This document shows positions 15,484 to 17,746 of a DNA stretch of 52,227 bases, in pieces. The DNA lies in contig CAXMUI010000035.1 in assembly GCA_964196475.1 (NCBI GenBank), positions 1-52,227 of the forward strand, read 5' to 3'. Below the pieces are notes generated by a model. That model ran no database searches. It worked only from the letters and a program-made list of their open reading frames with translations, and was not told where the DNA came from. The DNA comes from an uncultured Acidimicrobiia bacterium (GTDB taxonomy: Bacteria; Actinomycetota; Acidimicrobiia; Acidimicrobiales; JAHEJN01). Every line of letters starts with the position of its first letter. Within the stretch, counting starts at the first letter, position 1. Position numbers and translations under genes: made by a program.

Positions 15484-15527
15484 ACGGTTACCGTACTGTG
15501 ACGCCCTATGGTGTCGCCGTGTCTGGT

Positions 15528-16283
15528 ATGAAGTTTCTTGCTAATAATCGCCCTTTGGCGTTTGCTCACCGCGGTGGGGCAGGTGATTGGCCCGAGAATT
15601 CTATGCCTGCTTTCGATGCAGCCGTAGCTATGGGCTTCACTCACCTTGAAACCGATGTTCATGCCACTAGTGATGGGGTGTTAGTGGCATTCCACGACGA
15701 CAAGCTCGATCGCGTCACCGATATGACGGGAAACATCGTGGAGTTGCCGTGGAGTGAGGTAGCCAAGGCTCGTATCGATGGCAAGGAACCAATCCCTCGC
15801 TTTGATGAATTACTCGAATGCTTTCCCAATGCATTTATTAATGTGGACGCCAAAGCCGACCCGTCGGTTGGCCCGCTCATCGACTTGATTGCTCGCACGG
15901 GGAGTGTCGATCGGCTGTGTGTTGGGTCGTTTTCTGATCGACGTTTGGCCCGCATTCGCAAAGCAATCGGTCCTCGACTGTGCACCAGTATGGGCCCGGC
16001 CGGAATAGCCCGACTCAGAGCAGCCAGCTTCGGTGTGCCGGTGGGGCGCTTTAGCGCCGCATGCGCCCAGGTACCACCATCCGCCGGGGGCAAGACTCTT
16101 GTAGATGAACGTTTTGTCACCACAGCCCACGCGCACCGCATCGACGTGCATATTTGGACGATTGATGAACCCGAAGAGATGCATCGGCTGTTTGATCTTG
16201 GGGTCGACGGGATCATGACCGATCGACCAGCAATTCTCAAAGAGGTAATGATCGACCGCAACATCTGGTCCAACCAGCGATGA
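15528..16283 (+). CDS. glycerophosphodiester phosphodiesterase family protein
   Basis: Motifs AHRGGAGDWPENSMPAF, ETDVHATSDGVLVAFHDD and IWTIDE. Start taken at the internal ATG 15528 of track ORF 15498..16283. Confidence 0.88.
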   Translation: MKFLANNRPLAFAHRGGAGDWPENSMPAFDAAVAMGFTHLETDVHATSDGVLVAFHDDKLDRVTDMTGNIVELPWSEVAKARIDGKEPIPRFDELLECFPNAFINVDAKADPSVGPLIDLIARTGSVDRLCVGSFSDRRLARIRKAIGPRLCTSMGPAGIARLRAASFGVPVGRFSAACAQVPPSAGGKTLVDERFVTTAHAHRIDVHIWTIDEPEEMHRLFDLGVDGIMTDRPAILKEVMIDRNIWSNQR

Positions 16284-16312
16284 GCGCCTAGGCAGCGAAG
16301 AGAAGACGAAAT

Positions 16313-16398
16313 TGGGGATTACTCTGTGGATTAAGGTGGGAGAACTTGGTCCACATTGTGGATCAGTATTGTTTGGCGGGGATAAGTATGGGGATTAC
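16313..16398. promoter_or_regulatory. array of six DnaA-box-like 9-mers (TGKGGATWA / TGGTCCACA) with roughly helical phasing
   Basis: TGGGGATTA 16313, TGTGGATTA 16325, TGGTCCACA 16347 (inverted), TGTGGATCA 16357, CGGGGATAA 16377, TGGGGATTA 16389. Start-to-start spacings are 12, 22, 10, 20 and 12 bp. TGGGGATTAC is a perfect 10 nt direct repeat. Confidence 0.45.
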
Positions 16399-16763
16399 CG
16401 GTGAACGCTTGACCGGCCTACGTTTGTCGGGCAGAGTACATACATCAAGCAGTAACGAAGTGGGCTTCTCGCCCGCCGAGGGCAGCGGAGGCAACTCCAA
16501 AACCCTCACGTGAGGGCCGAAGGGGCAACCCGGAAACCCTCGACACACCCAGACGGAAGATCTTCGGATCAACCCGACGGGGCCGAGAAATGAATTCGCA
16601 AGATGAAATTTCGAAGCAGGAGTGTTTGGGCGTCCACCAAGATGCTGCTTGGAGAACCGGATCTGGTTACGACAACCGCAAGGAAGTCGGGACCGAGTGA
16701 AACGTTCGACCAGCAGCCCTGGAACAATGACTTCGGTCAAGGTTCCAGGGCCGCTCTCGTTTT
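16398..16763 (+). ncRNA. candidate large structured ncRNA, class unassigned
   Basis: The gap has no convincing ORF. Plus-strand hairpins carry stable tetraloops: GGAG-GCAA-CUCC 16487..16498, CCCUC-ACGU-GAGGG 16503..16516, GGG-GCAA-CCC 16522..16531, GAUC-UUCG-GAUC 16559..16570, GGUU-ACGAC-AACC 16665..16677, and a 13 bp stem with an inner UGAC-UUCG-GUCA at 16713..16754. The boundaries are guesses. Confidence 0.4.
16713..16763 (+). terminator. terminator-like hairpin closing the candidate RNA
   Basis: GCAGCCCUGGAAC pairs with GUUCCAGGGCCGC (13 bp, one mismatch). An internal UGAC-UUCG-GUCA sits inside it, and the U-rich UCUCGUUUU follows at 16755..16763. Confidence 0.4.
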
Positions 16764-16790
16764 GGGGCAATGATCCTCAACGGTGAGCGA

Positions 16791-17411
16791 TCACCTTGGC
16801 AAGCCGTCATGGGCACGCCAGCAGTACCACGCCGCGATACTGCGATATGGCTTCCAGTGATCTCCCAAGCTGCGTAGCTCCTTTGCCGTTGGTGCTGCGG
16901 GAGCCAGTCCTAGCAGTGCGTAGCCCTGCCGCACTCCGAGATCACCTACAGGCCAGACGTCGAGTCGTCGCAGCGCAGTCATCAGGAACATTTGCGCCGT
17001 CCACTCTCCTATGCCACGCACTTTTACAAGGGCATCAATGACCTGCTCATCGTTTAGGTAACCGAGTCGAGCCAATTCGATTTCCCCGGTAACCGATCGC
17101 TTCGAAAGGTCAAGCAACGACGCCATCTTGTTGCGGGACAGTCCTGCTTCCCTGAGGTCGTCGGGTGTTGCTCCGAGAAATCGTTCCGGGCTCACCTCAC
17201 CCAGAACAGATTGCACGCGTCGCCAGATGGTGCCGGCTGCGGCGCCCGCTAGTTGTTGGTAGACGATCGCTCGGGCCAACGTTGCGAAACGCTCATCAGC
17301 CTTAGGTGGAGTCGAGTACTTGACGGGTCCATGCAACTCGACCATGTGACCGATGAGGGGATCTTGCTCCCCAAGTGCGTAGCTGGCAGCAGCGAAGGAA
17401 AGCGGTGGCAT
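16791..17411 (-). CDS. DNA-3-methyladenine glycosylase II family protein (HhH-GPD, AlkA-like)
   Basis: 206 aa with HhH-GPD hallmarks LVKVRGIGEWTAQMFLM and VWPVGDLGVRQGY. Confidence 0.85.
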   Translation of the reverse strand: MPPLSFAAASYALGEQDPLIGHMVELHGPVKYSTPPKADERFATLARAIVYQQLAGAAAGTIWRRVQSVLGEVSPERFLGATPDDLREAGLSRNKMASLLDLSKRSVTGEIELARLGYLNDEQVIDALVKVRGIGEWTAQMFLMTALRRLDVWPVGDLGVRQGYALLGLAPAAPTAKELRSLGDHWKPYRSIAAWYCWRAHDGLPR

Positions 17412-17431
17412 GTCCTGACACTATGCAAGAA

Positions 17432-17471
17432 ATCCCCACAAGATCCACTGGCTATCCACTGGTACCCCACA
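17432..17471. promoter_or_regulatory. array of four ATCC(A/C)C-core 9-mers in the divergent promoter region
   Basis: ATCCCCACA 17432, ATCCACTGG 17443, ATCCACTGG 17454, TACCCCACA 17463, with starts spaced 11, 11 and 9 bp. The array lies between the AlkA-like start (17411, minus) and the small ORF start (17522, plus). Confidence 0.4.
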
Positions 17472-17521
17472 GGGCTCGCGTCGTACAATGACTTCACCAA
17501 GTTCCCCGAGTGGAGGTGTCC

Positions 17522-17746
17522 ATGTCCGTATTCGAAATCACCTTGCATGACCGTGTCGAGACAGTTGAAGCCGCCGACGGCTATCAGCTTGAAGGGCCGT
17601 TGACCACATTCTTCCGCTCCGACCATGGTCGCGGAACATTGGACTCGTGGAGCACCCGTATCGCTAGTTATCGCTCCGCTGATGTCGTGATGGTTCGTCG
17701 CATGGAAGAGTGCCAAATGCGGGAGCGCTTTCTTACGGCGCTATAG
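17522..17746 (+). CDS. small hypothetical protein (74 aa)
   Basis: ATG at 17522 is preceded by GGAGG (17512..17516) with 5 nt spacing. Its stop overlaps the stop of the convergent GT2 gene (CTATAG at 17741..17746). Confidence 0.5.
   Translation: MSVFEITLHDRVETVEAADGYQLEGPLTTFFRSDHGRGTLDSWSTRIASYRSADVVMVRRMEECQMRERFLTAL

Follow-up and report, generated by a model that had tools for sequence, protein, structure and literature searches.

Within a 52,227-nt stretch of DNA from an uncultured Acidimicrobiia bacterium (contig CAXMUI010000035.1; the whole stretch is hereafter the window), we found that a discrete and very abundant RNA of about 270-280 nt accumulates from the gap between two protein-coding genes (16284..16790). 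The gap lies between a gene for a glycerophosphodiester phosphodiesterase (GDPD; 15498..16283, plus strand, PF03009 match with E 9e-43) and a gene for an HhH-GPD (AlkA-like) glycosylase (16791..17411, minus strand), the latter being convergent with both the GDPD gene and the gap RNA. These borders, with the GDPD gene ending at 16283 and the AlkA-like reading frame ending at 16791, are as a first-pass annotation of the window had placed them. The evidence for expression and structure is strong, and we consider it reasonably probable that the plus strand of 16409..16763 forms a gene of its own, encoding a stable and highly structured non-coding RNA (ncRNA) that would act by binding protein. The RNA gene is single-copy in the window, as determined by covariance-model search.

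A discrete RNA accumulates from the gap

The expression data derive from assembled contigs of 12 metatranscriptome runs from independent studies, which were placed on the window. By a 31-mer index, the gap sequence is present in 20 RNA runs from 12 studies, comprising marine sediment, seawater and other environmental metatranscriptomes, some of only 18-30 million letters. The contigs span 16453/16456 to 16718/16725, and the accumulating RNA is placed at 16445..16725, about 270-280 nt, on what we take below to be the plus strand. Contig depth on the gap reaches 23,600 in run X4 and 8,355 in run X30, both of which are libraries from marine samples depleted of ribosomal RNA (rRNA), and is about 76 in X2 and X25. 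The RNA depth on both flanking genes is zero, save for one depth-2 contig running into the 3' end of the AlkA-like gene. In some marine Acidimicrobiia, few transcripts are as abundant as the gap RNA.

The limits of the transcript are sharp, and contigs from DNA runs traverse both of them unbroken (X1, 16444-16844; X5, 16430-16857; X13, 16422-16763). Since DNA contigs cross both ends, the limits stem from the RNA or its complementary DNA and not from the assembler. The first-pass annotation had proposed either a stand-alone RNA or a long 3' untranslated region (3' UTR); the former stands, while a GDPD 3' UTR is ruled out by the confinement of the transcript to the gap and by the silent flanks. 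At 16718-25, the 5' foot of a terminator hairpin described below, the RNA depth falls about 300-fold, from about 770 to 2, and the hairpin is apparently missing from the accumulating RNA. Its loss likely reflects 3' processing rather than escape from random priming. Removal of such a hairpin in maturation occurs with the precursors of RNase P RNA, 6S and tmRNA.

The only long open reading frame (ORF) of the gap lies on the minus strand (16363..16770, 135 aa). It had been judged non-protein at first reading, and this judgement holds: the search for homologues among 5.8 billion clustered proteins returned none, and the Pfam search found no domain. Neither this ORF nor a 56-aa ORF on the plus strand is preserved in two deeper relatives, the loci L023 and L029. 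A riboswitch or cis-regulatory leader, likewise considered unlikely from the outset, does not fit the arrangement of the gap, which has no plus-strand gene 3' of the RNA (the AlkA-like gene is convergent) and in which a terminator closes the RNA; Rfam cis-regulatory families had no match in the window.

Promoter, terminator and strand

A putative promoter precedes the RNA on the plus strand (16409..16437), with the -35 hexamer TTGACC (16409-14), a 17-nt spacer and the -10 hexamer CAGAGT (16432-37). It agrees with the consensus at 8 of 12 bases and was therefore missed by a simple scan. The -10 hexamer stands 8 nt ahead of the first helix of the RNA, and hexamers of the CA-A-T type occur at this same distance in five further lineages (CAGAGT in L023, CAAGGT in L029, CAAACT in L020, CAAGAT in L021 and CACAGT in L015). 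Judged from these signals, transcription would start at about 16444-16446. The RNA contigs set in 8-12 nt inside this start, which is usual for random-primed libraries.

The 3' end is marked by an intrinsic terminator on the plus strand (16717..16763), which reads CCCUGGAAC-AA-UGAC-UUCG-GUCA-AG-GUUCCAGGG followed by CCGCUCUCGUUUU. Specifically, a hairpin of 9+4 bp with a UUCG loop (16717..16750) is followed directly by the U tract, as in intrinsic terminators; the interruption of the U run kept it off the list of the simple scan. Similar hairpins with a U tract close the gap RNA in L023, L029, L015, L020 and L021. The 13-bp helix enclosing UGAC-UUCG-GUCA that was noticed earlier is this conserved terminator hairpin with its U tract.

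From such signals, the abundant RNA is almost certainly the plus strand, as the first-pass annotation had argued from the GNRA and UUCG loops. Promoter and terminator are conserved in position on the plus strand only. The loops capping the hairpins across the lineages read GCAA, GAAA and GGAA on the plus strand, with UUCG in P5 and in the terminators, and would read UUGC, UUUC and CGAA on the minus strand. Additionally, the changes 16560 A>G and 16688 C>U retain pairing only as G.U on the plus strand.

Upstream of the promoter, six 9-mers of the type TG(G/T)GGAT(T/C)A lie in one orientation on the plus strand (16313..16397): TGGGGATTA at 16313, TGTGGATTA at 16325, GGTGGGAGA at 16335, TGTGGATCA at 16357, CGGGGATAA at 16377 and TGGGGATTA again at 16389. 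Their offsets of 0, 12, 22, 44, 64 and 76 nt are near whole multiples of 10.9 nt, so that all six boxes face the same side of the helix. The strict motif TG[GT]GGA[TA] has eight plus-strand matches in the whole window (52 kb), and four of them fall in this array; for a given 90-nt stretch, four such matches have P of about 1e-9. The distances of the boxes from the -10 hexamer are kept in L023, L029, L020, L021 and L015, and the GGGGAT boxes of L015, L020 and L021 stand at the window distances of -76 and -55. The promoter sits below a helically phased array of activator-like sites. Phased upstream activator arrays typify strong stable-RNA promoters, such as the Fis sites of rrn P1.

The array motif resembles the DnaA box (compare TGTGGATAA, the complement of TTATCCACA). 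Relative to the DnaA box TTATCCACA/TTGTCCACA, TGTGGATTA and TGTGGATCA match at 8 of 9 positions and the TGGGGAT-type boxes at 7 of 9, and perfect TTGTCCACA or TTTTCCACA boxes occur beside the 78-aa gene of L023 and L029 (see below). A replication origin at the box cluster was considered and rejected, as a GC-skew switch is absent from the window. Between the array and the -35 hexamer we also observed GGTGAAC (16400..16406), the complement of the actinobacterial PHO-box core GTTCACC, which recurs in L023 (GGTGAAC) and L015 (GTGAAC). GDPD genes are a class frequently under phosphate control.

Predicted fold and covariation

Compared with dinucleotide shuffles, the gap sequence forms a more stable predicted structure on either strand (z -3.1 for plus and -3.4 for minus); since the values are similar, folding energy alone does not pick the strand. 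The fold was derived with RNAalifold, from the close set and from a five-sequence alignment, and agrees with independent single-sequence folds. As predicted by this model, the RNA consists of a four-way junction, formed by a closing stack, the hairpins P2 and P3 and a three-way junction (P4-P6), and of a 3' hairpin.

The closing stack would be formed by 5' strands at 16445..16475 (P1 UCAAGCAGUA, 16445-54; P1b GUGGGC, 16460-65; P1c GCCCG, 16471-75) and 3' strands at 16627..16652 (UGGGC, GUCCAC and UGCUGCUUGG), all on the plus strand. Specifically, P1 pairs 16445-54 with 16643-52, P1b pairs 16460-65 with 16632-37, and P1c pairs 16471-75 with 16627-31. A collinear closing stack is present in L023 and L029, and the independent minimum free energy (MFE) fold of L029 recovers it. 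The pairing of P1b and P1c survives G-C>A-U, U-A>C-G, C-G>U-A and G.U>C-G changes in these two lineages.

P2 (16478..16507, plus strand; GAGGG-CAGC-GGAG-GCAA-CUCC-AAAA-CCCUC) is a GNRA-capped hairpin with a symmetric internal loop, and P3 (16512..16541, plus strand; GAGGG-CCGAA-GGG-GCAA-CCC-GGAAA-CCCUC) follows the same design. The two are near-duplicate modules, each running GAGGG, loop, short stem, GNRA, stem, A-rich loop and CCCUC. In P2, the pair G16480-C16505 becomes A-U in L001, a close relative, and in DNA run X13, while GGAG/CUCC becomes GGUG/CACC in L023 and L029, so that the hairpin GGAG-GCAA-CUCC of the first-pass annotation (16487..16498) is conserved, as GGUG-GCAA-CACC in those lineages. 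P3 contains the hairpin GGG-GCAA-CCC (16522..16531), also recognised earlier; in L001, L014 and most RNA contigs, the change 16526 C>A turns its loop into GAAA. P3 carries compensatory changes in both L023 and L029, and reads GUG-GAAA-CAC in L023. The separate folds of the lineages agree on both hairpins.

The three-way junction (16542..16626, plus strand) comprises P4 (GACAC/GUGUU), the UUCG-capped P5 (16548-81) and the GCAA-capped P6 (16582-16617). The joining strand AGGA falls within the invariant block GAAGCAGGAGUGU, and GACACACC is likewise invariant. The hairpin GAUC-UUCG-GAUC (16559..16570), which had been picked out from the letters, lies in P5; its UUCG is kept and its stem altered in L023 and L029. 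In P6, the pair U16591-A16608 becomes C-G in L001 and in RNA contigs. In a model-guided alignment of P4-P6, 91.6% of cells pair, versus 30-46% in controls slid by 1-3 columns, and both sides change in 10 of 24 pairs, versus 0-4 in the slid controls; none of 500 shuffles reaches the observed value. With a plain MAFFT alignment, compensatory changes are seen at 21 of 91 predicted pairs. The 3' domain (16654..16707, plus strand) is predicted to form a long irregular hairpin capped by CC-GCAA-GG. A GNRA-capped 3' hairpin (GCAA or GGAA) appears in the separate MFE folds of the window, L001, L014, L023 and L029, and an RNA variant in run X9 combines U16667>C with A16692>G, a haplotype deduced from equal contig depth. 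The model built from this hairpin alone (R3) does not reach L023 and L029.

Several helices drawn at first reading give way in this comparison. The 14-nt palindrome (16503..16516) is split between two helices, one half serving as the 3' strand of P2 and the other as the 5' strand of P3; it is rejected because C16505>U in L001 is compensated by G16480>A and not inside the palindrome. Instead of GGUU-ACGAC-AACC (16665..16677), the comparison favours GAC-AA-CC-GCAA-GG-AA-GUC within the long hairpin. A G-G mismatch interrupts the 9-bp helix at 16611..16653, and the competing pairing of 16643..16652 with the 5' end is better supported. Among the alternative GUCGGG/CCCGAC pairings, the copy at 16426 belongs to the promoter and precedes the RNA start, and the copy at 16686 is unconserved. 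GGUGA-GCGA-UCACC (16782..16795) is outside the RNA and unconserved in L001 and L014. The duplication of AAGCAG (16447 and 16614), both copies facing CUGCUU at 16645, is real, and both copies are kept in L023 and L029; as to their competition, the comparison favours the 5' copy, which belongs to P1. A conformational switch between the two is possible.

Relatives and synteny

Sequence, structure and covariation are all kept in relatives, and the expectation of a conserved RNA is thereby borne out. Exact-pattern scans yielded the close relatives L001 (an Acidimicrobiia metagenome-assembled genome), L005 and L014, with about 93% identity over the gap. Specifically, a 20-mer scan of genome contigs gave one close relative, L001, and an 18-mer scan of metagenome contigs gave only L005, which is L001-like, the other 11 loci being chance matches. 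Two scans of viral contigs with core motifs gave nothing, or chance matches in AT-rich or coding DNA. L003 (1431..1450) and L011 (4556..4575) were examined as possible relatives and rejected as chance matches, being low-GC, eukaryote-like and Rfam-negative contigs. These two are related to each other, and share with the RNA core the 20-mer CCGGAAACCCTCGACACACC and a nearby CAACTCC, and nothing else.

Deeper relatives were reached by synteny. In L023-L025 and L029-L034, whose GDPD proteins are 70% and 66% identical, respectively, to that of the window, the GDPD gene is followed by a same-strand gap of 885-941 nt, then a 77/78-aa ORF and a glycosyltransferase gene; the AlkA-like gene is missing beside the RNA in L023 and L029. 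BLAST finds no similarity between the window gap and the L023 and L029 gaps. When these gaps are aligned with that of the window, a collinear series of invariant blocks appears: CAAGCA (5' end), GGWGGCAACWCC, GACACACC, GAAGCAGGAGUGU, UGCUUGG, ACCG, CUGGU and CCGSAAGG. Trained on the three close sequences only (16540..16656), a covariance model detects L023 with E 2.6e-5 and L029 with E 5e-4, and nothing else notable in 123 kb. Both L023 and L029 carry insertions, of about 85 nt after the closing stack and about 200 nt before the terminator, which bring the RNA there to about 570 nt.

Homologues of the AlkA-like protein with 54-59% identity lead to three further loci, in which the RNA would lie on the minus strand of the locus (gaps at L015 3622..4444, 823 nt; L020 3062..3732, 671 nt; L021 3119..3757, 639 nt). 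All three share the window order PK-GDPD-gap-AlkA, and their gaps hold purine-rich, GNRA-rich structured sequence on the corresponding strand, with a terminator and the same type of -10 hexamer. The L020 and L021 gaps are 73% identical, with five compensatory pairs; both also contain repeated GGAACCG-type motifs. None of the three is detected by R2, an improved version of the core model, or by R3, the model of the 3' hairpin. The gap RNAs of L015, L020 and L021 are probably orthologues that have diverged beyond alignment. Syntenic look-ups at L022, L026-L028 and L037 showed the gap to be absent. We regard the RNA as the founder of a family in marine Acidimicrobiia whose core is conserved and whose periphery varies, with lengths from about 280-320 nt here to about 570 nt.

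At L016-L018, the neighbour position of the AlkA-like gene is occupied by a tmRNA gene next to smpB, as identified by ARAGORN and Rfam. The tmRNA gene is convergent with the AlkA-like gene (L016 3785..4172; L018 2639..3026, minus strand), and its tag is DTDRVALAA. That another abundant stable RNA stands at the same position relative to AlkA is probably a coincidence, because AlkA is absent beside the RNA in L023 and L029. Since the AlkA neighbour varies, we regard AlkA as mobile and the real linkage of the RNA as being to the GDPD gene.

Comparison with known RNAs

The class of the RNA had been left unassigned at first reading, and searches agree. Rfam 15 (4227 models) gives no match at gathering score across the window, and in E<10 mode over 16200-16900 returns four matches, all far below threshold, that we regard as junk: two microRNA (miRNA) models together with MH_s10 and DUF805b, with a best E of 0.26 in the gap. 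The two miRNA models fall on the terminator hairpin, on the wrong strand. ARAGORN found neither a transfer RNA (tRNA) nor a tmRNA in the window, nor did the Rfam tmRNA model, and a description of such an RNA was not found in a literature search. The RNA is a new family of a familiar general kind, namely the abundant, stable, structured bacterial RNAs.

The closest systems lie in the same phylum. Canonical 6S is absent from Actinobacteria; they possess lineage-specific abundant RNAs of 300-520 nt that bind the RNA polymerase core, namely Ms1 (PMC9130861) and CoRP (PMC11077062), and neither can be traced by sequence across orders (PMC9130861, PMC11077062). Rfam yields Ms1 candidates only from close relatives of mycobacteria (PMC9130861). 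Ms1 (MTS2823 / scr3559) is likewise an abundant, stable and structured RNA, of about 300 nt, lying in a long intergenic region with its own promoter and diverging so fast that its homologues are traced by synteny (PMC9130861). It differs in its flanking genes, a HAD-IB hydrolase and an oxidoreductase (PMC9130861), where the gap RNA has GDPD and either the 78-aa gene or AlkA, and in its fold, a rod with a central bubble and two short hairpins as against the predicted four-way junction. An Rfam match to Ms1 is absent from the window, and Ms1 was compared here by description and not by sequence. CoRP of Corynebacterium glutamicum is lineage-specific, very abundant, 516 nt long, structured, not 6S-like and processed to stable fragments (PMC11077062), and it binds the RNA polymerase core (PMC11077062). 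It differs in being flanked by tRNA genes, and was also compared by description and not by sequence. CoRP shows that Actinobacteria evolved polymerase-binding RNAs more than once.

6S RNA (RF00013) is similar in being an abundant stable RNA whose mature form arises by processing, and it accumulates in slow growth; its model is unmatched even at E<10 in 16200-16900. Moreover, 6S, which binds the sigma-70 holoenzyme and templates pRNA, is a rod of about 180-200 nt whose large central bubble imitates an open promoter, whereas the gap RNA is predicted to be multi-branched and has 280-320 nt (about 570 nt in L023). The large RNAs IMES-1 to -4, GOLLD, ROOL, raiA and OLE, which came to light in metagenomes and metatranscriptomes, resemble the gap RNA as highly expressed structured intergenic RNAs of uncultivated marine bacteria, with a conserved core and GNRA loops; their Rfam models are unmatched, and the gap RNA differs from them in host clade (Acidimicrobiia) and genomic context.

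Neighbouring sequences

Beyond the AlkA-like gene, the window contains a 78-aa ORF on the plus strand (17510..17746), which is preceded at 17428..17472 by the box motif of the RNA promoter array, in inverse orientation. In L023 and L029 this gene lies directly downstream of the RNA gene. The protein is conserved, with 217 representative clusters at E<=1e-3 and the motif Y..EGP.TTFF...D.WS.R.AS.R, and has no Pfam, NCBIfam or PDB sequence match. AlphaFold (30-sequence alignment) predicts a six-stranded small beta-barrel with a pLDDT of 83.6. Foldseek returned nothing significant for this model (best E 0.5), the weak top matches being Sm/LSm/Hfq and Sac7d/Sso7d folds.

At the other border, a 33-nt segment over the GDPD stop codon (16270..16302) has a contig depth 5-20 times that of its flanks in four DNA metagenome runs. 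The segment is also seen in other contexts, in every case after ...GTGTCCTCGG, and one DNA contig connects 16302 back to 16270 with 24 nt in between. The depth excess and the rejoining contig suggest a tandem unit of about 57 nt, with a candidate hairpin (GTTGGCCG...CGGCCAAC), elsewhere in those communities.

Discussion

We propose the following course for the gap RNA. Transcription would start at about 16445 from a sigma-70-type promoter below the phased activator-like array and end at the intrinsic terminator, and 3' processing would then leave the accumulating form of about 16445/16453..16725 without the terminator hairpin. The 5' end would pair with 16643..16652 and close a four-way junction bearing P2, P3 and P4-P6 with the invariant GACACACC and GAAGCAGGAGUGU, followed by the GNRA-capped 3' hairpin. 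We favour an action through bound protein over one in cis or by base pairing. The RNA is extremely abundant, accumulates in a stable and probably processed form, and combines a conserved junction core, in which single strands are invariant, with a periphery that varies; these four properties point to protein binding or a defined tertiary fold.

The leading guess as to its partner, made by analogy and tentative, is that the RNA may sequester RNA polymerase as Ms1, CoRP or 6S do, and so be their counterpart in the Acidimicrobiia. These three abundant RNAs tie up the polymerase when cells grow slowly. The gap RNA is similar in size and abundance to Ms1 and CoRP, and is found in sediment communities. 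Several points weigh against our reading. The predicted fold is a multi-branched junction and not the 6S rod with a central bubble, the flanking genes differ from the HAD-IB hydrolase and oxidoreductase of Ms1, and the binding of protein is argued by analogy. The contigs carry no direction, so that the strand and the ends are read from sequence signals, and the consensus fold energies of plus and minus are similar. Just three deep lineages are alignable, and the key alignment (A7) was fitted to the model. Finally, the gap RNAs of L015, L020 and L021 escape the core model, so that the breadth given for the family is provisional.

A different biochemical role, as the scaffold of a new ribonucleoprotein (possibly with the 78-aa beta-barrel protein) or as a ribozyme, is conceivable and somewhat doubtful. 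RNAs with a defined tertiary fold typically show such a design, with a junction core that is conserved and holds invariant single strands, internal loops that are symmetric and A-rich, four GNRA loops, and peripheral domains that vary. The 78-aa gene, which adjoins the RNA downstream in L023 and L029 and encodes a predicted small beta-barrel (pLDDT 83.6), carries the same boxes inverted. However, tertiary contacts and catalytic motifs were not identified, the Sm- and Sso7d-like Foldseek matches are weak (best E 0.5), and L015, L020 and L021 have no 78-aa gene at the locus. Improbable, in our estimate, is a base-pairing regulator, or a sponge for another RNA or a sequence-specific RNA-binding protein, acting through conserved single-stranded blocks (GAAGCAGGAG and repeated RAACC). 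In the model the purine-rich strand GAAGCAGGA, which is invariant, is left unpaired, AAGCAG is present in two conserved copies, and AACC-type motifs are frequent in the gap RNA and in those of L020 and L021; on the other side, the AACC enrichment is modest (6 versus about 2 expected, by manual count), and such size, heavy structure and extreme abundance are unusual for small RNAs of the seed type.

Transcription of the abundant RNA from the minus strand is very improbable. The directionless contigs, the equally good folding of the minus strand (z -3.4, with similar alifold energies) and the sharp right-hand contig ends at 16718-25, which could be a 5' end, would allow it, but this reading turns the conserved loops into UUGC, UUUC and CGAA, neither a promoter-like site to the right of 16725 nor a terminator to the left of 16453 was found on the minus strand, and the promoter and terminator conserved in five lineages are those of the plus strand. 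Least credible of all is a cis-acting part of a neighbouring messenger RNA (a GDPD 3' UTR or a shared terminator region with AlkA) or a protein-coding ORF (135-aa minus or 56-aa plus). The gap does lie between two convergent genes and contains mechanical ORFs, yet the flanking genes have zero RNA depth where the gap RNA has thousands, the gap has its own putative promoter, L023 and L029 have no AlkA-like gene next to the RNA, the 135-aa ORF has neither homologues nor a domain, and the ORFs are lost in L023 and L029. The protein-binding ncRNA remains the reading that we prefer.

Ocean waters and sediments hold abundant Acidimicrobiia, which are almost uncultivated. With a contig depth above 20,000 in an rRNA-depleted marine metatranscriptome in which its neighbours are undetectable, the gap RNA comes from a gene that few others of these organisms match in expression and that has had neither name nor family. 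Metatranscriptome studies that drop reads without a protein or rRNA assignment lose the RNA. With its conserved core and variable periphery, it lends itself well to structural study and to the building of an Rfam family. More speculatively, it could be the core of an undescribed Acidimicrobiia ribonucleoprotein, with the beta-barrel protein as the candidate partner and a DnaA-box-like array, or an independently evolved polymerase-sequestering RNA. If the ribonucleoprotein reading were true, its very high expression would be linked to the state of replication or growth, and the RNA would be unrelated to 6S, Ms1 and CoRP. Each actinobacterial lineage studied so far has given a different abundant polymerase-binding RNA, and the gap RNA is a concrete candidate for that role in the Acidimicrobiia.

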